64,000 bases of DNA, taken from the NCBI GenBank assembly GCA_964016885.1, contig OZ024743.1:49848001-49912000 (forward strand), written 5' to 3'. A model generated the notes under the pieces. It searched no databases. It worked only from the letters and a program-made list of their open reading frames with translations, and was not told where the DNA came from. Of this stretch, positions 1 through 60,873 are shown piece by piece; the stretch's first letter is position 1, and the number at the start of each line of letters is the position of its first letter. The translations under genes were made by a program, and so were the position numbers. The DNA is from Eledone cirrhosa (Eukaryota).

Positions 1-28
1 TGCCCTCTCCCAGTTTTCCACCTTTAAT

Positions 29-3000
29 TTACAGATATATACTCAGAGTAGGCCCATTCACTCGGGCCATTCTTGCTTCTCTCACCCATCTTTCAACAAA
101 ATGCTGGGAAGAGAGCACTTCCCTCTCTACTCTGATTTTCCTTTTCAAATGAAATTTGAAAAAGTCAATCAGAGCATCACCGAAGAGGTAAGTGCTCGTC
201 TTCAGCCCTTTCAAACGTGTCCACCATACTATCTCTTTCGCCATGGCCACCAGACAGATAAAAACTGCCTGCCCTTCCCAGCTAAAGGAAGAGGGCGGGG
301 CAATCCTCACGATGGACTCAGATGATAGCTGGATCCGTCCTAAACGCGACAGCAGGTGTTCGACATAAACCCACAAGTCAGCAATTTTCGGACACTGGAC
401 GAGTGCGTGCAGGACGGTTTCGTCGCCCTGCGCGCATCTCGGACATGCCCGGCTGACGGCACCTCCATGCCAGTAGAGTTTATCCCGAACTGGCAAGGCT
501 CCTCGGTAGCACTGCCAGGCCAGAGATTTCTGGAAGTTGTCCATAGGCCCCGGCCCGAAAGTTCTTCCGAAGAGATTGGCTAGTTGATTTTCGTCGACGC
601 CTAGAGTTTCCCCAAGTACGTCGTCGCTCTTCCCCTCCACTAATCCTCTATAGAACGCCGAGGTGGAGTTTCCACCGATCACATTGCCCGATTGGTCGAG
701 GGCTGTGAGCGCCTGAAGACATTCCAGTCTCCAGGCGCTCCCTCTCGGTCTTCGCTTGACCCAGGACTGCAGCTCCGTCAAGGAAACGAGCTAGGGAAAT
801 ACGCACCTAGCAAACGGCGACCACACCTGATCACCGTCGAGGAAGAGGTAGAGATGTCGTAGCCTGAGCGCGTGCCTGCGCATCATCAGCCACGGCATGC
901 CCAGCCCTCCACGTAGCGGGTGTTGACAACAGATGGACCGCCTGACCATCGGAGCACGTCCCTTCCACAAAAAGCGAAAGAGCAAACGCTCCAGCGCAGT
1001 CAGGCGAGGCTTAGGACAAGGTACGACGGTCAGGCGGTAGCAGATGACAGACGCGATGTACGCGTTAGCCACCTCCGCTCGACCTTTCAGGGATAGCTTC
1101 CTCTCCGCCCATTTCTGGGTGAGAGAAGCCACCCTGCTCGTCACCTCGTCCCAGTTTTTGTCCGCCTGGAGGTCCGGACCGAACCAGACCCCTAGCAATT
1201 TAACCGGTCCGTCCGTCCAGCGTCCGACGACGCTGTTGGACGTCATGGACCTGCCTCTCCAGGTGCCGAGCTGCAGGCCCACTGACTTTTCCTGGTTGAT
1301 CATTGCTCCTGTCACCGCTTCGTATTCTCTTAGTGTAGTGCCGATCGCCTCGATGTGTTTGGCGTTCGACACCACTACGGTGACATCGTCCGCATATGCT
1401 GACACGGATCTTCCGCATCCTAGTTCGCGCGGGACGCCCCTCAATGTCTCCAGTTTGTGCAGTAATGGCTCGAGAGTCAATACGTACAAGAGGGACGAGA
1501 GGGGACATCCTTGGCGGACCGAGCGCATGATGTTGAACGGTTCCGACAGGTGACCGTTCACTCTCAACACAGAGCAGATGTCGCTGTGCATGGCAGCGAT
1601 CCAGCCTCTGAAGATGGGCCCAAAGCCAGCCGCCCTCAGGATTGCCGCTAGGTAACGATGGTCGACCCTATCGAAAGCTTTCGACTGATCTAAATTGATC
1701 AAGGACCCACCCGTGCCAGGTTCCCTAGCTACCCTCTCTACGATGTATCGCATGAGGTGGAGGTTGTCGTGGACGGATCTGTCGGGAATGGCGCATGTCT
1801 GCGCCTCTCCCACCAGACCACCAACGACAAGCGCCAACATCTTTGCTAGCACCTTGGCCAAAATCTTGAACTCTGTGTTTAGCAGAGTTATGGGCCGGAA
1901 ATTATCTATGTTATCCCCCTTGTTCGGATCCTTTCTCAGCAGTGCCACCGCTCCTCGGCTCACAGAACTGGGAATTCTCCCGTTCTGTTGCCAGTTGCAG
2001 TAGACGTCCGCCAAGAGGCCTCCGAACAAGTCTGGCATCTGTACGTAAACTTCATAGGGTAGACCATCCAAACCAGGCGATTTACCCTTTGTGCAGCCAG
2101 TCATTGCCTCCCTTACTTCAGCGGCTGTTATCGGCTTTTCGCAACACTCCGCCTCAGTGGCCGAGAGCCGCGGCAGTCCGTCGAGGTAGACACTAAAGTC
2201 CATCCCTCGACCCGGCCCACCGCTGCCCCCGAACAGCTGAGCGAAGTGTCGCTGAAAAGCTTCACACATTTGCCCGAGATCGAGTAGCATTCGCCCGTCG
2301 TGGTCCACCAAAGACCGGATCGTGGCTTTGTTGCCACGACGCGCCTCCGCCACTCGGGCCCATTGAACGGCTTTCGTCCCCTCGTGTCTGAGAGCACGCA
2401 CCCTAGCTCTGACAACACAGCCTTCGTGCTTTGCATTGAAGAATTGGTCAAGGGCCAATTTCGCCGCAAGCACGTCGGTCGCAATGCCTTTGCTAAGCGC
2501 CTCGTCTAATTTTCTAACTAGTTCTCCCTCTGCTCTATTTTTCTCTATTGCTAAAGCCTTACTAAACCTAATCGATTCTATTCTAATCGCTCTTTTTAGA
2601 GCAAACCACCACTGGTTGTTGACGATGGCCCCCGTCAACGCTCGCTTAACTAGTTCGCTAATCCGGTCTCTGTAGGCCTTGCGCGCTGGTAAGGACGCGT
2701 TTAGCTTCCAGTACCCGGGTCCTCGTCTATGAAGCCTATCTAAGTCAAGCACACAGGTCACGAATTTGTGGTCCGTGTAGCTGACTATCTTGAATTGTGG
2801 ACAGCCTATGCTAGACCTATCTATTTCCCTACAAAATACTCTATCTAGATATGATCTGGATGACCCTATGCGATTTGTCCAAGTCTACATTGGCACATTC
2901 GGGAAATCCAATCGGTACCTGTCAGACAGTTCAAAACGCCTGAGCAGGTTGGTGAGGCTCTTGCACCCTCCACCCCTATCTGCTAATCCCACACAGTCCC

Positions 3001-3448
3001 AGCGTGCATCTAAGATCCCGTTCCAGTCGCCCACTAACACTAAAGAGCGGGACGTTCCAAGAAAGGTCTCCAGACGCCGGAAGAAATCAGGCCGTCCTGC
3101 TCCTGTCGGGGCATAGACGGCCACTAGCCTGAAAGCTTGCCCGTCTCCGCTGGTCACGCCCAGCACCACCAGCTTACCCTCTGGGTCCAGGAAGATGGCC
3201 CATATGGCGAGATCCAAACCTCTCCGAAAAAGCACAGCAACTCATCCCCCCGATCCAGGACGGCTGGGAGATGTGTACACATCGTAGCCGCCGAAGATCG
3301 GTGCGAAGGCCCGTGCTTCGGAGATTCTGGTCTCGCTGATGGCCACTACATCTATGTTTAGTGACCTGAGGTCGTTGAGCAGGTGACCCTGCTTCCATGA
3401 CGACCCCAAGCCACGCGCATTTATGCTGCCTATTCTGAGTGAGGTCAT
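29..3448 (-). pseudogene. A1 ORF2: APE endonuclease + reverse transcriptase + C-terminal CCHC
   Basis: ORFs 3242-3448, 2885-3235, 791-2761 and 29-781 are all in one frame, separated by three in-frame stops. Motifs: SINARG, LVGDWN, SYLDR, TDHK, PGYWKLN, FRPITLLN, DQSKAFDRV, QGCPLS, YADD, CPRC..H..C. Confidence 0.93.
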
Positions 3449-3483
3449 GTTTAAAATAGAGTGGAAAAGATGGGAAAGACCAC

Positions 3484-5586
3484 TTACCGTACTTTTCGTA
3501 GAGGGGGGATGGTTTTTCCATCCCCTTTCACTTGATCGTCTGGTGAAGGGACCGTTGAATCGTCCCTTCGGCTGGTCGTCGGCTCTTCTATGAGTATGTC
3601 CGAATATACTCTTCGGTTGAGTGTCCCTCCTAGGTCTCTGAAATCACCAACTGCGTTGGGGAATTTCGTTTTAATGTTTGTGTACTGTTTCTGTGCTATT
3701 TTTAGCAGTCTTATGTTAGTTGGCGTTTTGATTGGTGCTGGTATTATGTAGTCGTGTTGTGAAATGTCTGTGTGTTCAATTATGTAAGTCATTAGTTTCT
3801 TGTTGTGTGTATTTATTGCCGTGCATTTGTTTTTCTGGGGGTGGGGTGTGGTTCTGCTATTTTCTTGTCGTTGTTGCTGGGTGTGTGTGTTTTGTTGTTG
3901 TGTTTGCGATGTTGGTGCTTGTGGTGGTGGTGTTGAAGGTGTTGTTGGCGGTGGGGTTGTCGCCAGTGGTGATGGTGGTGCTAGTGTGGGTGGTGATGGT
4001 GTTGGTGGTGTTGCTGCTGTGAATCTCTTTGCAGTAGCCTTTACCCTTTTTTCATTTCTTTCCTCCCTTTTCAAAGGCGACGATGCGCTGCTTCTGCGTA
4101 TATGCCTTCTTACGACCTTTTGCCATCCCTCTCCCACCTCACACTCCATGTCTGATTCTGTGAGGTCGGGGAGGGGTACCAGCTCCACTCTTTCACTTGT
4201 TGTTGTTGGTGATGTTTGCACTGGAGTCTCTGTTGCAGCTGCATTTGGTATTGCTGTTGTTGTTGTTAATACTTCCACTGCTGCTGCTGTTTTTGATTTC
4301 CGTGGCGTGGGTATGGGTGCCACGGACCTATCGTTTCTGGTTGCCGCTTGTCCTGTTGCTGGTAGCCGTGGAGCCGGTTTCGGAAGGAGGGGGGTTTTCT
4401 CCTTTCTCAGGGTCTTCTCGTTGCAGAAGGCCCTGAGGTGAGTCTTCGATCCACAGCGAAAGCATTTCGGGCGTTTGCCCTCAACACTTATGGGCAGTTG
4501 AGTGCCGTTATCGAAGTCTATCACATCCGGGATAGCTTCGATGCACTCCTGGTTGGTTTGGATTAACATCTCAATGGAGGTACCGACCCAATCTTCTCTT
4601 ATTTTTTCTGTACTTGCAGTACAGTTGTTTTGTCCTCGATTCCGACGAGGACAGACGCGGCCAGCCAAGAAGGGGCCATCCCGGGGGGGGGGGTCAGTTT
4701 GACCCTCACAATTTTTTGCCCGCAGTAGGAGGGCACCAACACCATTTCCTCGCTCCTTAGGGTCACTAAGGATTGAGCCTTTGCCTCCTGGGGTGTGGCA
4801 AAAAGTACGTCTACGGTGGCATATTTCTTGCCTCGGGTGATGTGCGTTTTCCGCTGCCACACAGACCCCAAGGCTTTTTGTATTTGAGCCTCTGTGGCTC
4901 TTTCAACCCTACGGGATTTTGTACTTACTGTACTGTACGTGACCGTACAGTGCTGTTGGGTTTCGAAAAAAATTTCCGCTGCCTTGCAGATTGCTCGGTG
5001 TCCGGTTTTTGTCACCATCCTCTTCGCTTCCTCTAATTCCTCATTTGTTATGAGGATGGTTTCCAGGTTCTTTGCGATACCTGCAAACGAGATTGGTTTT
5101 TCTTTGCTGCTGTTGTTGTTGTTGTCGTCAGAGCTGCTGTTACTTTTGTTGTTGCTGCAGGTACTACGACTACTGCCGCCGCCGCTGTTGCTGTGGTTGT
5201 TGTTGTTGTTGCTGCTGCTGCTGCTGTTGTTGTTGCTGCTAATGCTGTTGTTGTTTATGCTGCTGTTGATGCTGTTGCGGCTGCTACTGTTGTTTTCCTT
5301 GTCACTGTTGCTGCTGTTATTACGGCTGCTACTGCTATTATTCCTTTTTCGTCGCTGTCGTCGTCGTCGTGGAGAAATCTTGCTCGCTTTGCACGTGATT
5401 TTTCTTTTCTGGCGTCGCTTGCGAAAGAGAAGGGGGGGAGAGAGACACATTTAGAGAAGGGAGGGAGAGAGACACATTTAGAGAAGGGAGGGAGAGAGAA
5501 AATCTTCTCTCTGCTGTAGTGACGATTGAGGAAGAAGAAGACGGAATGAGTGGGAGTGACCTATGAAAATTCTTTTTCGTAGCCAT
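3484..5586 (-). pseudogene. A1 ORF1 (gag-like, CX2CX4HX4C knuckle, N/S-rich N-terminus and P/T-rich C-terminus)
   Basis: Stitched from ORFs 5338-5619, 4599-5450 and 3484-4860, with frameshifts near 5340 and at the G-run near 4683-4693. VEGKRPKCFRCGSKTHLRAFC aligns with family B ORF1 VEGRRPSC. Confidence 0.82.
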
Positions 5587-5801
5587 GTTGTTTTTTTGTT
5601 TAAAATAAATATTGGGCACAAAACCCCAATAGGCGGTTATTTAACCCCGAAGGGCCAAATAACGGACAGAAAGACCCCTCTCACGAGGAGGAGGGTGTTT
5701 TTGTCTACAATTTGGTTAAAGTTTTAAACAATTTACAATTGTTATAGCGGTCAAAATTTACAATACCTTACAGAGCCGAGCCTCCGTCAACCATAGCATT
5801 C

Positions 5802-5828
5802 AATAATAATAATAATAATAATAATAAT
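5802..5828. repeat. (AAT)n microsatellite
   Basis: Direct reading. Separates the A1 5' end from the R4/Dong fragment. Confidence 0.97.
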
Positions 5829-6962
5829 CTGTGTCTATTATTAGGTACAGTGCGAGAATTCTAAGATGGAATGTTGCTGAACAAAAAGAAATGGATAGGA
5901 AGACTAGGAAGCTATTGACTATCTACAATATGTTCCACAAGAGGAGTGATGTCGATAGACTCTACTTAAGGAGATCTGAGGGTGGAAGAGGTCTTATCAG
6001 CATAGAGGACTGTGTTCAGATGGAGAAAAACAACCTACACAAATACGTGACTGATAGTAAGGAGCCAATGCTCAGAACTGTACTGAAGGAGGGGACAATA
6101 GGCCAGGGGATGTCCAAGGAGGAAATAACATCAAGGAGAAAGAGCAGCCTTCAGGAAAAATCCCTTCATAGTACCTTCTTTGAGAAAACTGAATTTAGAG
6201 ATTCACAGACATGGAACTGGTTGAAAAGAGGAGACCTTAAAAAGGCTACAGAAGGAATGTTAATGGCTGCGCAGGAGCAGGCCCTCAAAATGAAGTGGTT
6301 GAAACACCACATTTACAAGGAGGAGGCCAGCCCACTGTGCAGGATCTGTGGAGAGAGAGAGGAGACTGTGGCTCACATTGTATCCGAGTGTAAACACCTA
6401 GCCCAGACTCACTATAAGGGCTGGAGACATGATGTGATGGGCAGGGTGATCCACTGGCACCTATGCAAAGTAAACAATTTACCACATTCTGAGAAGTGGT
6501 ATGAGCATAAGCCAGAGGCGGTGATAGAAAACGATCAGGTGAAGGTGCTGTGGGATTTTAGGATACAGACGGACAAGAAACTGGAACACAATAGACCTGA
6601 CCTGGTGGTTTTGGACAAAGAAAAAAGATCGTGCCTGATTGTGGATGTGGCCTGCCCATTCGACACGAGAGTGCAAGAGAAGGAGAGGGAGAAAATTAAC
6701 CGATACCAGGACTTAAAGTGGGAGGTAAAAAGGATTTGGAAGTGCCATGAAGTCAAAGTGATCCCGATTGTCATAGGCGCACTAGGGACTATCTCAAAAA
6801 GTTTCCAGGGATGGTTAAAGAAAATTGGCCCCTTCACGCTTTTTGGAACGCTTCAAAAGGCATGCTTGCTGGGAACAGCAAGAACCCTCCGATACGTCCT
6901 GAATATCTGAGGCTCAACAAACTTTCCAGTTAACCAACATCAATGACTGAGACTCAAAGAAC
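5829..6962 (+). mobile_element. 5'-truncated R4/Dong-like non-LTR retrotransposon (RLE endonuclease)
   Basis: ORF 5831-6910: LYLRRSEGGRGL thumb, CRICGEREETVAHIVSEC zinc finger, RHD, RPDLVVLDK, IVDVACP, GALG, LQKACLLGTA. (AAT)n on both sides matches the known TAA-repeat targeting of Dong. Confidence 0.88.
5831..6910 (+). CDS. Uninterrupted C-terminal 359 aa of R4/Dong ORF (thumb, CCHC, PD-(D/E)xK restriction-like endonuclease)
   Basis: ORF track; motifs as above. No true start codon because of 5' truncation. Confidence 0.8.
   Translation: MSIIRYSARILRWNVAEQKEMDRKTRKLLTIYNMFHKRSDVDRLYLRRSEGGRGLISIEDCVQMEKNNLHKYVTDSKEPMLRTVLKEGTIGQGMSKEEITSRRKSSLQEKSLHSTFFEKTEFRDSQTWNWLKRGDLKKATEGMLMAAQEQALKMKWLKHHIYKEEASPLCRICGEREETVAHIVSECKHLAQTHYKGWRHDVMGRVIHWHLCKVNNLPHSEKWYEHKPEAVIENDQVKVLWDFRIQTDKKLEHNRPDLVVLDKEKRSCLIVDVACPFDTRVQEKEREKINRYQDLKWEVKRIWKCHEVKVIPIVIGALGTISKSFQGWLKKIGPFTLFGTLQKACLLGTARTLRYVLNI

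Positions 6963-7016
<54 letters not shown>
6963..7016. repeat. (AAT)n tail/target of the R4/Dong element
   Basis: Direct reading. Confidence 0.97.
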
Positions 7017-7816
7017 CAACTGGCCAATCTCTTCGGAAGAACTTTCGGGCCGGGGCCTATGGACAACTTCCAGAAATCTCTGGCCTGGCAGTGCTACCGA
7101 GGAGCCTTGCCAGTTCGGGATAAACTCTACAGGCATGGAGGTGCCGTCAGCCGGGCATGTCTGAGATGCGCGCGGGGCGACGAAACCGTCCTGCACGCAC
7201 TCGTCCAGTGTTCGAAAATTCCTGACTTGTGGGTTTATGTCGAACACCTGCTGTCGCGTGTAGGACGGATCCAGCCATCAGCTGAGTCCATCGTGAAGAT
7301 TGCCCCGCCCTCCTCCTTTAGCCGGGAAGGGCAGGCAGTTTTTATCTGTCTGGTGGCCATGGCGAAAGAGATAGTATGGTGGACACGTTTGAAAGGGCTG
7401 AAGACGAGCACTTACCTCTTCGATGATGCCCTGATTAACTTTTTCAGATTTCATTTGAAAAGGAAAATCAGGGTAGAGAGGGAAGTGCTCTCTTCCCAGC
7501 ATTTTGTTGAAAGATGGGTGAGAGAAGCAAGTATGGCCCGAATGAATGGGCCTTCTCTGAGTATGTGTCTGTAAATTAAAGGTGGAAAACTGGGAGAGGG
7601 CACTTGCCCTGGTGGTCAGGGCCACTGTGGTCTTTTAATGGGCTTTCTCCACAAATGTCCCTTGGAAGTCTCCCCCCTATTGGGGAATTTTTCTTTGTTA
7701 TTTTATTTCAACCTCTGTTTTTTTACACGCAGAAATGCCCATTTGTACCGTCCTGTATTGTCCTGTACTGTCCTTAATGTCTACTTTATGTGAACCCTTG
7801 TGGTTAATAAAGAAAA

Positions 7817-7817
<1 letters not shown>
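7014..7817 (+). mobile_element. Tx1-like family A copy A2, 3' fragment with complete 3' UTR
   Basis: Near-identical to the reverse complement of 1-589; ORF 7059-7574. Ends AATAAAGAAAAC followed by (ATT)n at 7818-7872. Confidence 0.92.
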
Positions 7818-7874
<57 letters not shown>

Positions 7875-11834: not shown

Positions 11835-12420
11835 TCTTGTTCCATTAGGGTTGCGAAATGACATGTCTTTTCTTCATCGTTTTATTTTTCCTGAAGTGGC
11901 ATTTATCGATTATTATAATTATTGCTGTCTTAAATAAAAATAAAAAAAAATAATAACAAATAATAATAATAATAATAATAATAAATGAATAAATAAATAA
12001 AATATTTGAAAAGAAGACATTAATTGACCAGCTGGAAGAGAATCCATCTTGAATCTTGGCAAATGATGCCCTAGTTTCGTAACCAGTTTATATTTTATTT
12101 CTGTTTTCAACGAGATTTTATTGTCGAAAACCTTAAGTATGGCATCATATATTTGAAATATCGTTAAATGTGTGAAGCCTTCATATTTACAGATAAACGT
12201 CTTAGTTTGTTAGCGTGACAGCATATATATATATTTGAGGAGCTATATAATGTGTGAAGCCTTCATATGTATTAGTGAAAACCTTAAATGTTTTGGTGTA
12301 ACATCATATATGTGAGGTGATGTCGGTAAATGTAAATGTGTCGATAAATTACCCTTAAATGATGTAATAAAGTCGATGGTGAATAATACCGTCTGGTAAA
12401 AACAAAAGAATCATTTACCT

Positions 12421-15424: not shown

Positions 15425-18400
15425 GCTGGCTCATAGCTGGCTTCATCAATCCAGCGAATGACAACGTGATTTCCATTGGGAAAACCACAGGCAATGCGTT
15501 CAGTGGAACAGGTATAGAACTTGTAGTGCAAATGAAGCCTGAACGCATTGCCCAAATACCCGACAGAATCCTATTAGGGGGCCACGGGTATATAAACATT
15601 AGCGTGGAGGGGAGAAGGCCGTCCTGTCATATCTGTGCAGGCAGAGGGCACCTGAAGGCGGCTTGTCCCCAACTCAACAAGAAGAAAACCCTGCTACCAA
15701 CACCAGCTCCACCACCACCACAACAGATAAACAAACAACAAAACTCAGTCCCACCCAACCCGTCCCTCAGTAAAACTACACCACCACCACAACACAAACA
15801 GTCACAACACCTTACCCAAAAACAAAACACAGTCCCACCCAACCCCTCACTCAATAAAACAACACAACCACCGCAGCCACAACACACAACACAGTCTAAC
15901 ATAGTGACATCCATCTCCCCCACAGAGAAAACCAACACGGAAATAATACCAGCAAACATACCTCTTCCCTCCAACACTGAAGATAACCCAACGAATTAGG
16001 AGGAAGAAACGGAGTCCTTCAGACAGATTAAAAGGAAAAAAAGAAAACATGTGCAAAACACACAAAGCCAAACAACCCCTACCCAAATGTCAACACAATC
16101 CAACAAAACACAAAACACCCCTCCAGCAACAAACAAAACCAAACCTGCCCCTCCCCTCTTCGAAACACTCACACCATCCGAAAAAAAGACATTACACTAT
16201 ACTTACATCAACAGAAACAATAATAAATTAAATGAACTCATAAACAATAACCCTTCGGTACAAACCGAAGGGGTAAACTTTGTTTCTTCAGAAAACTACT
16301 CACATTTAAAATTAATAAAGATCCCAATGAACCTCTACCAAAAACTAAAAAAGGATTTTAAGGAGGACGTAGGACCACCCTCTGTCAAACCCATAAACCG
16401 CGTCCTACTAAAAAGCTTTCCCCCTCCCCTTCCCCTCCCCAACACAACTCCAAACACTGACGACCCCACACCACCACAAGACACCCCTTCACCCAACACC
16501 CCCTACCCCATGGAAGTCGTGCGACCCGAACCCCGGGAAGCAGAAAGGTAGGTCTCTACACTCTCCTTTGGCTTTGCCGCCCACATGGATGTGTTAAGAG
16601 TAGGATGTTTGAATGCACGTGGCCTGGGCTCAACTTGGAAGCAAGCAAAGCTTCTAAATGACCTCAGGTCACGTGGTATAAATGTAATGGTTATCTGTGA
16701 GACTCGGATCAGCGTCGTGCGGCAGCTGGCCCCTACCTTCGATGACTTTGAGGTGCATGCATCTCTCTGTCAACCTGGAGGTGGGGGTGGGGTTATCGTA
16801 CTGCTGGAAAAACACCTGGGTCTCACCGTACAGGTTGTTCACTCGGACCCGGAGGGTCGTTTGTTGGTGCTAGACGTTGGCAGTAGTGAAGGTGCGGCCT
16901 TGAGACTGGTCGCCATCTACTCCCCTTTCGGAGCTGAACGGCCCTACTTCTTCCAGCGTTTGGAGACTTTTCTGGGAACGTCGTGTTCCCTGCTTCTAGC
17001 GGGGGATTGGAATGACATCCTAGATGCACGTTGGGACTATGCAGGAGCATGTCCTAATAGAGGGGGGTGTAACAGCCTCAAGGGGTTACTCGACCGTTTT
17101 AACTTGGTCGATAGATATCGACTAGATTTTCCAACTGTGTCAACCTGGACTTGGACGAACCATAGTGGTCAATATAGATCGTATTTAGATATATTCTTAG
17201 TTAGAAGTAAGGATAGGGACATATTAAGCTGTCCAGAAATGCTCACGGTTGGCTATACGGATCACAAATTAGTGACCTGCGTAGTCAATCTCGAGAAAAC
17301 ACATAAACAGGGTCCCGGCTACTGGAAACTTAATTTGTCTTTAGCGGCAAAAGAGACTTACAGAAACCGGATTAGCAGATTAGTTAAGGAGAGGTTGACG
17401 GGTGCAATCGTCAACAACCGATGGTGGGCATCTCTCAAAAGAGAGATTAGAACAGAATCAATAAGTTATAGCAAGATGTTAGCTGCCGATAGGAATAGAA
17501 ACGAGAAAGAATTAACAGGTAAATCAGAAGAGGCAATCAAGAGCGAAGATGTGGCCAGAGTGCTGGCATCGAGGACGGCCTTGAGCCAGTTTTTCGATGC
17601 AAAGCACGAAGGCTGCGTCATTCGAAGTAAAATACGTGCTCTAGGTAATGAGGGGGCCAAAGCCGTTGGCTGGGCCCGCGTGACAGAAGCTAAGAGTGGA
17701 AATCGATCCACCATCCGGTCTTTGCAAGACGAGGATGGACGGGTGATCCGGGAGCCTAAGCAGATGTGCGAGGCCTTTCAAAGGCACTTTGCCCGATTAT
17801 TCGGGGGAGGCGAGGGTCCGGGCGGGGACGTGGATTTCGGTCCATACCTCGACGGCCTGCCGCGTCTCTCGAGCGAAGAGGCAGAGTCCTGCGAGGGACC
17901 AATCTCAGCTGATGAGATCGGGGATGCGCTGAGCCAATGCAGCAGACGCAAATCTCCAGGTCTCGATTGTATACCTTACGAACTTTATTTAGCAATGCCG
18001 GTCTTCGTCTCCGAACTCCTCGAAGCGGTCTACTGCAATTGGCAGCAGAACGGGAGAATTCCTTGTTCTGTAGCCAAGGGCGTAGTCTCGCTGGTGAGGA
18101 AGGACGAGAACAAGGAGGATAGTATAAATAATTTTCGGCCCATAACCCTGCTAAACACAGAGTTAAAGATTTTGGCCAAGGTGTTAGCAAAGAGGTTGGC
18201 GCTTGTCGTGGGTGGCCTGGTGGGAGATGCGCAGACTTGTGCTATCCCATCCAGGTCCATTCACGATAACCTCCACCTCATGCGATACATCATAGAGAGG
18301 GTTGGGAACAAACCCGGCTTCGGTGGGGCCCTGATCAACTTGGATCAGTCTAAGGCGTTCGATAGGGTCGACCATGGTTACCTGGATGCGGTGCTAGCGG

Positions 18401-20238: not shown

Positions 20239-20854
20239 TATCTGTCCACCTATCTGTCTGTCTATCTGTCCACCTGTCTGTCTATCTGTCTATATGTCCA
20301 CCTGTCTATCTGTCTGTCTATCTGTCTGTCTATCTGTCCACCTATCTGTCTGTCTATCTGTCCACCTGTCTGTCTATCTGTCTATCTGTCTGTCTATCTG
20401 TCCACCTGTCTATCTGTCTGCTATCTGTCCACCTGTCTATCTGTCTGTCTATCTGTCCACCTATCTGTCTGTCTGTCTATCTGTCTGTCTATCTGTCCAC
20501 CTGTCTATCTGTCTGTCTATATGTCCACCTGTCTATCTGTCTGTCTATCTGTCCACCTATCTATCTGTCCACCTATCTGTCCACCTGTCTATCTGTCTGT
20601 CTATCTGTCTGTCTATATGTCCACCTGTCTATCTGTCGGTCTATCTGTCTGTCTATATGTCCACCTGTCTATCTGTCTGTCTATCTGTCCACCTATCTAT
20701 CAGTCTGTCTATCTGTCCACCTATCTGTCCACCTGTCTATCTGTCTGTCTATCTGTCCACCTATCTATCTGTCTGTCTATCTGTCCACCTATCTATCTGT
20801 CTGTCTCTCTGTCCACCTGTCTATCTGTCTGTCTCTCTGTCCACCTATCTGTCC
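20239..20854. repeat. ~0.6-kb compound (TCTA/TCTG/TCCA/CCTG)n tract (GATA/GACA type)
   Basis: Direct reading. Confidence 0.96.
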
Positions 20855-52260: not shown

Positions 52261-52528
52261 ATAAATAATAAGACATCCATGTCACCATAAATAATAAGAC
52301 ATCCACGTCACCATAAATAATAAGACATCCATGTCACCATAAATAATAAGACATCCATGTCACCATAAATAATAAGACATCCATGTCACCATAAATAATA
52401 AGACATCCATGTCACCATAAATAATAAGACATCCATGTCACCATAAATAATAAGACATCCATGTCACCATAAATAATAAGACATCCATGTCACCATAAAT
52501 AATAAGACATCCATGTCACCATAAATAA
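52261..52528. repeat. 26-bp minisatellite, ~10 copies
   Basis: Unit aaataataagacatccatgtcaccat. Confidence 0.97.
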
Positions 52529-54877: not shown

Positions 54878-54963
<86 letters not shown>

Positions 54964-56797: not shown

Positions 56798-56934
<137 letters not shown>

Positions 56935-59396: not shown

Positions 59397-60399
<1,003 letters not shown>

Positions 60400-60873
60400 T
60401 ATATATATATTTATAAATATAAATTCAGCGAGAATCGCATTTCGGCGGGTAGAAAAAGCGAAACGAAACGCAAAAATCAGAGTTATGCTGGCATGCGCTC
60501 CCCATAGTTAAAATACCAGAGCTAAACAATATGTTAAAACGCCATACAAACTGAAAAAGTGGCATTAACTACCTAAACCAAAAAATCAAATCAAGCTAAA
60601 AGGGTCAAAACAAAATAAATGATAAAAAAACAGACCTGGACCCATTGGAATTGATGGTAAAATCCAAATGCAGGGTTTCTATGACACCTAAATCAATAAT
60701 ACTGGCTGCTTAAATTATAAGCTTTTGGTATAATGATCGAACAAGGAATATCACGTTTTCAACAGGTATTTTGCTCTGTACCAAGTTTGTGAATGACGTA
60801 GAGCTTCGTAAAAGCACATGTGTAATTCACAAGGGGAAAGACCCCAGATTTATAAAAAAAAACATATTTATAC

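Follow-up and report, generated by a model that had tools for sequence, protein, structure and literature searches.

Do two related retrotransposon families lying close together in an octopod genome insert into different microsatellites, and if so, what accounts for the difference? The question is raised by a stretch of 64,000 nucleotides of Eledone cirrhosa DNA (assembly GCA_964016885.1, contig OZ024743.1, forward strand, 49,848,001 to 49,912,000), hereafter the window; all positions below are counted from its first base. It contains two copies, A1 and A2, of a retrotransposon family that we call A, and six units of a related lineage, B. The original prediction, made from the sequence alone, was that A had switched from the (TATC)n target of a close relative to (ATT)n, and that a loop of the endonuclease could explain the switch. 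The two families are indeed associated with different microsatellites in the window, and a difference in target preference is the likeliest cause. We consider it probable (about 0.65) that family A is a Tx1-like long interspersed element (LINE) targeting (AAT/ATT)n in the manner of Kibi and Koshi, beside a relative that targets TATC.

Junctions of the A and B copies

On the plus strand the first 7.9 kb read A1, (AAT)9, a fragment of another LINE, (AAT)18, A2, (ATT)18 and then unique DNA (Table 1). By its anatomy we take the fragment in the middle to be Dong/R4-like. In the sense of the element, A1 starts directly after (ATT)9, and A2 ends with AATAAAGAAAAC followed by (ATT)18, both as originally described. 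All three visible A junctions are in AAT/ATT runs and none of the three is in TATC. For B, all twelve counted junctions (six of six 3' ends and six of six outer 5' junctions) are in TATC/TGTC; the count leaves out internal deletion and duplication junctions, and the 5' end of B5 is assumed from its position. Outside the elements the window amounts to 33,488 bases, of which AAT/ATT runs of at least four units take up 120 (0.36%). For random insertion, three A junctions out of three exceed chance by far, although all three belong to one cluster. Fisher's test of A against B yields p = 0.036 by copies and p = 0.002 by junctions, values that overstate the evidence, as each family is represented by a single cluster. 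The claim that A and B are associated with different microsatellites is borne out by the junctions in the window; for A it comes from two copies.

A1 has a complete 5' end with a 5' untranslated region (UTR), and its second open reading frame (ORF2) is interrupted by three in-frame stops (3244, 2887 and 793). ORF2 encodes an N-terminal apurinic/apyrimidinic endonuclease (APE), a reverse transcriptase (RT) and a C-terminal zinc-binding domain; in A1, Pfam yields RVT_1 (E 2e-28) together with zf-RVT (E 9e-08), and in B2 it yields Exo_endo_phos. Upstream is a CCHC-containing ORF1. In this order of domains, and in the 5' truncation seen in A2, the family has the features of the L1 group of APE-type retrotransposons without long terminal repeats (non-LTR). 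The ORF1 of A and that of B are homologous. The Pfam scan of two A1 ORF1 pieces produced no match at E 0.01, and zf-CCHC in two B ORF1s (E 0.002–0.004) is below Pfam's cut-off. On this architecture, which fits membership of the Tx1 clade, we assume that A and B are Tx1 elements; look-ups of clade names (the clusters of 20 proteins, the atlas, and a search with the APE domain only) returned no protein named Tx1 or Dong.

Over 589 bp, A1 and A2 share 96.3% identity; with 22 of these bases differing, they are not parts of one duplicated block. Where A2 stops, reads and contigs go on into A1-like sequence in all four sequencing runs that were aligned, hence A2 is a true 5' truncation. These alignments, to A2 with short flanks, cover four of 17 listed runs and pass over the 3'-junction repeat. 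In the restriction-site-associated DNA (RAD) run, the large loose ends were taken as ligation artefacts at restriction sites rather than junctions; they fall at points where many molecules end, and their agreement is near 0.36. A weak match of A1 ORF1 at 56807–56877 is low-complexity sequence and not a further A copy.

Target or tail

At their 3' ends, A and B can be aligned through TGG..AATAAA(A)GAAA(A)[C/T], after which they pass directly into different repeats. In B, the repeat that follows is better read as target than as a templated tail, because the 3' ends enter the local variant of the array, be it pure TATC, TATCTGTCCACC, or just ATATCT before the next element, and the truncated 5' ends adjoin the array as well. 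As the 3' ends of the two families are homologous, the (ATT)18 after A2 is more likely to be target, too. The junction of A1 was not made by a tail either, as a 3' tail could not give rise to a junction at the 5' end.

Several observations weigh against targeting by A. The evidence consists of two copies in a single cluster. The repeat on the 5' side of A2 is (AAT)18 and that on its 3' side is (ATT)18, whereas a clean insertion into (ATT)n would leave ATT on both sides. The 3' junction of A1 is outside the window, so that in neither copy is (ATT)n seen on both sides, and a target-site duplication can be read at neither. Moreover, the two arrays that flank the Dong-like element are the same ones that A1 and A2 adjoin with their 5' ends. 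TAA repeats are the reported target of Dong elements (PMC3812793), and therefore the AAT arrays can be explained without family A.

The most serious alternative, which we nevertheless regard as unlikely, is that A adds an (ATT)n tail of its own and integrates loosely, in whichever orientation, where the DNA is AT-rich or a microsatellite; the Dong array would simply have caught two copies. The opposite-strand 5' flank of A2 is a direct prediction of this model: (AAT)18 upstream and (ATT)18 downstream are what insertion with an own tail into the end of (AAT)n would leave. In addition, the AAC that follows the ATT run keeps the AAT register for two letters, and the family is very abundant. An 845-base A2 query was matched by 11,270 contigs in run X6, 7,816 in X1 and 16 in X11, and by 99,599 of 12,467,656 reads in X15, none of these being copy numbers; parts of A1 were found in 11 of the 17 listed runs, which come from seven studies and bear several organism labels. 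However, B, whose 3' end is homologous, has no tail, the 5' junction of A1 is in (ATT)n in the sense of the element, and a single short array would hardly have received two insertions had there been no preference for it.

Targeting can be reconciled with the opposite-strand flank of A2, since either a second break on an inverted AAT array or a later inversion of the block would yield such a flank. In the preferred account, family A would nick the AAT strand of an AAT/ATT repeat and prime reverse transcription there, and the B lineage would use TATC/TGTC repeats in the same manner. A1 and A2 would be two separate insertions at one AAT array, which had served the Dong-like element as well. The last AAT of (AAT)18 is common to the array and A2, a 3-nucleotide microhomology (7014–7016); through it, the 5' end of A2 may have joined an AAT-strand break in a nearby inverted array, the DNA between the opposed arrays being lost or inverted.

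The second way to obtain the flank, improbable in our estimate, is a rearranged cluster: A1, the Dong-like fragment and A2 were once co-oriented in one (ATT)n array, and the left block was flipped later by an inversion, or by an assembly join, at the AAT microhomology. Targeting would then be real and the 5' end of A2 a breakpoint instead of an insertion junction. Followed along the minus strand, the left block consists of (ATT)18, Dong-like fragment, (ATT)9 and A1, which fits one array; the microhomology is in place, and B shows just such a same-strand array with internal deletions. On the other hand, the second breakpoint would fall to the left of the window, out of view, and this scenario alters the history but leaves the claim about the target unchanged.

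Two further explanations were discarded. Twin priming of a single insertion is ruled out, as A1 already holds the segment present in A2 and the two are 3.7% apart. A chimera formed by template switching between Dong and A RNA was set aside, as the strand problem recurs at the next array.

Table 1. Features of the window
Feature	Position	Strand	Description
A1	<1–5801	−	Tx1-like non-LTR retrotransposon; 5' end complete, decayed; 3' UTR off the left edge of the window
A1 ORF1	3484–5586	−	Frameshifted pieces; CCHC motif by eye; 27–40% identity to B ORF1s, in patches only
A1 ORF2	29–3448	−	APE endonuclease, reverse transcriptase, zf-RVT; a single frame of 1,139 codons
A1 hairpin loop TNRIGSSR	2855–2878	−	Equivalent of betaB6-betaB5 of the L1 endonuclease
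(AAT)9	5802–5828	+	(ATT)9 upstream of A1 in element sense; also 5' flank of the middle element
Middle element	5829–6962	+	LINE fragment with restriction-like endonuclease (RLE), 5'-truncated, single ORF; CCHC, RPD..D and K...Y motifs
(AAT)18	6963–7016	+	3' flank of the middle element and 5' flank of A2; strand opposite to the 3' flank of A2
A2	7014–7817	+	3' end of a family A copy, 5'-truncated; last bases AATAAAGAAAAC
(ATT)18	7818–7872	+	At the 3' junction of A2
B lineage	12525–35011	+	Six units, head-to-tail, in compound TATC/TGTC repeat
B2 hairpin loop TNHSGQYR	17155–17178	+	
B5 hairpin loop ANRSGQSR	32190–32213	+	
Minisatellite	35130–35867		57 bp × 13
Minisatellite	37707–41430		54 bp × 69
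Minisatellite	44452–45355		21 bp × 44
Minisatellite	52261–52528		26 bp × 10

The middle element

The single ORF of the middle element has the architecture of LINEs with a PD-(D/E)xK restriction-like endonuclease. Its longer relatives (120 listed of 155 found) all have RVT_1 and none has an APE label in Pfam. None of the protein matches to the fragment, from which the RT is absent, is named Dong or R4. Dong, of the R4 clade, resembles A in the class of repeat used, and the Dong/R4-like fragment is situated in the very array of A; it differs in having an RLE endonuclease and a single ORF, whereas A has an APE. Further, the sense strand of the fragment reads AAT, while A reads ATT at two of three junctions. 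Two AAT-rich arrays in the window, (AAT)28 at 54879–54962 and a degenerate array at 11932–11997, have neither an A nor a Dong-like neighbour and may be regarded as potential sites left vacant.

The B lineage

The basis for the target of B is one array, and it is very probable that the lineage targets TATC/TGTC. The repeat is a compound TATC/TGTC/TCCACC satellite with the longest stretch at 20239–20850, and the spacer between B4 and B5 is only ATATCT. All six units have the target repeat on the same strand on both sides, and internal deletions are present in units of this array. B consists of several subfamilies, with 73–95% identity in ORF2 and 44–63% in ORF1 among units. In the 5' UTRs of A1, B3, B4 and B5, a splice-donor-like GTAAG motif is seen 30–60 bases from the 5' end (about 5770 on the minus strand, and 21585, 24860 and 30220 on the plus strand).

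Relationship of A and B

The original description of the A and B ORF2s as closely similar overstates the case. The identity of A1 and B is 64–70% in the ORF2 protein, 57–61% in the APE domain, and 70–73% at the DNA level over long ORF2 matches. Four database proteins are nearer to A1 than B is (P0001, 78%; P0016, 81%; P0042, 82%; P0124, 81%), and P0003 is at 74%. Among named proteins, the nearest to A1 come from Argonauta hians (two, at 68% and 60%) and from a cuttlefish (47%), in keeping with an octopod host.

Trees were built with FastTree and fast IQ-TREE from an A1-anchored alignment of 17 and 13 rows picked for coverage, with insertions relative to A1 removed. B is monophyletic with support 1.0 and has a long stem. 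The placement of A1 is weakly supported (0.48; Shimodaira–Hasegawa-like approximate likelihood ratio test, 22). In the approximately unbiased (AU) test with 15 rows, the placement of A1 as sister to B (p = 0.41) is not separated from its placement with the A-like proteins (p = 0.59). The tree of the endonuclease and linker puts the Argonauta protein P0041 with B (support 0.98), which suggests, if descent was vertical, that the split is old. An insertion of four residues in the zinc-binding domain is peculiar to B, which thus looks like the derived lineage; B also has the long stem. Hence a switch of A to (ATT)n is a polarity that these data do not establish. A and B may be old lineages, and either target could be ancestral.

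A large sister group (P0004 to P0119, from ENA assemblies) is at 40–50% identity; its clusters have up to 732 members, and its hairpin loops, 8–12 residues long, are highly variable.

Scans of other contig collections supplied no host flank for A. The metagenome contig scan produced three weak matches of 19–24 residues among 178 candidates; scans of viral contigs gave 0 of 37 and 0, and that of prokaryote genomes 0 of 48, with one 22-base chance match within bacterial DNA.

The endonuclease loop

The loop sequences were given correctly in the original prediction, and they form an L1-type beta-hairpin. The model of the A1 APE domain, with stops read as X, has a predicted local distance difference test score (pLDDT) of 94.6, and its best fold match is the L1 endonuclease (E 7e-19, template modelling (TM) score 0.83), ahead of the TRAS1 endonuclease (E 6e-13). 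The loop segment aligns to the betaB6-betaB5 hairpin of L1 with E about 1e-4 and a register uncertain by two residues. In the model it is a two-strand hairpin with short strands, 187–188 and 195–196. The human L1 endonuclease and its LTx and LR1 hairpin grafts (PDB 1vyb, 2v0r, 2v0s) have the same fold and hairpin as A1 (TM 0.80–0.83), but the human enzyme is only about 21% identical to A1 and is a promiscuous cutter of T tracts; in the grafts, the nicking profile was changed while the target of the donor was not transferred.

The least probable of the explanations considered is that A and B are a recent sister pair in which a change of the hairpin (I for S, S for Q) redirected insertion to (ATT)n, the earlier target being (TATC)n. 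The loop is the hairpin of L1, TRAS1 and R1, and changes in it alter the cleavage pattern in TRAS1 and R1Bm (PMC1919474) and in L1 (PMC1950540), while the sister relationship of A1 and B is not rejected by the AU test. However, the Tx1L site was not recognised by the L1 endonuclease when the Xenopus Tx1L loop had been grafted onto it, and additional factors, among them pairing of the RNA with the primer, are suggested by the authors (PMC1950540). In R1Bm, target recognition is spread over many residues (PMC1919474). According to these reports, the hairpin matters but is not a portable specificity code.

The comparison of A and B themselves does not single out the loop. Among eight residues, A1 differs from B2 at four and from B5 at three, and B2 and B5 differ at three despite the same target. 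The A-like protein P0003 also differs from A1 at four of eight positions, and at position 4 of the loop it has serine, as B does. Fixed differences between A and B number 57 among the 216 APE columns that A1, B2 and B5 all cover; the loop contains two of them, with 2.1 expected, and 71 of 187 eight-residue windows contain more. The loop motif is found in 42 of 120 homologues, with 28 distinct loops. A1 is one copy only, and a decayed one, in which a stop precedes the loop by two codons, and B looks like the derived lineage. The loop difference is therefore at the average of the domain and no larger than that between two B units with a shared target, and the claim that it explains the target of A is not supported. 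Under the targeting account, the specificity would be spread over the endonuclease surface instead of residing in the eight-residue loop alone, and pairing of the 3' end of the RNA with the nicked strand would perhaps contribute.

Comparison with known elements

Tx1 and R1 are named as the APE clades with specific targets (PMC4640811). Microsatellite targets in the Tx1 clade include (TC)n for Kibi, (TTC)n for Koshi and (TTCC)n/(TTTC)n for the crocodilian Tx1-1_Crp group (PMC4494074); elements of the Kibi and Koshi type are also covered in PMC3812793. In PMC4494074, a family is called repeat-specific when more than 20% of its flanks are in one repeat type. Like A and B, these are two-ORF APE–RT LINEs at simple repeats, with related families in different repeat units, so this much is already known for Tx1 (PMC4494074). 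They differ in that their targets are pure pyrimidine tracts, whereas the repeats of A and B are AAT/ATT and TATC/TGTC, in host, which for A and B is likely an octopod, and in that the target of A is claimed from two copies.

In Octopus vulgaris, 80 L1-Tx1 families make up 56.3 Mb (PMC13282606) and 51 Dong-R4 families 92.7 Mb (row in the supplement of PMC13282606), and both groups are described as abundant and recently active (PMC13282606, PMC8967140, PMC10294476). The portions of these three papers that were examined contain no analysis of targets. The L1-Tx1 families are of the same class as A and B, and A and B may be among them. The literature searched contains no report of (ATT)n or (TATC)n as Tx1 targets, nor of an octopod host for Tx1 targeting; Repbase, the usual place for records of such families, was outside the search, and they may well have been described before.

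Should the preference for ATT prove to hold across the genome, the known microsatellite-targeting APE LINEs would be extended by two repeat motifs and by a host among the cephalopods, and A and B would be a comparative pair for the change of targets in APE endonucleases, a process that is not well understood (review, PMC3812793). As material for loop swaps, this pair is worth less than proposed: it was offered as a natural pair of close relatives for mapping or reprogramming specificity, but the endonucleases differ at about 40% of positions and the loop is not enriched in differences. The A-like families at 78–82% identity are better comparators once their targets are known.

A broader picture, put forward tentatively and with the odds against it, is a radiation of Tx1-like families in octopods, at 60–85% identity, dividing among themselves the commonest microsatellites (AAT, TATC/TGTC, perhaps more). 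An APE lineage would then have converged with Dong on AAT arrays, nicking both sides and deleting or inverting the DNA between opposed arrays. Such a radiation would be a dense natural series, in which the residues determining specificity could be mapped by association across families. A very abundant element beside AAT repeats would presumably also matter for microsatellite markers in population studies of octopuses.

Other features of the window

Two ORFs on the minus strand lie outside the elements described above. The one at 59397–60410 has 337 codons and a YIGST motif, which resembles the GIY-YIG end of a Penelope-like element; it has no Pfam match at E 0.01. The other, at 48751–49533, has 260 codons and a PHD-like cysteine cluster, and is probably a fragment of another LINE.

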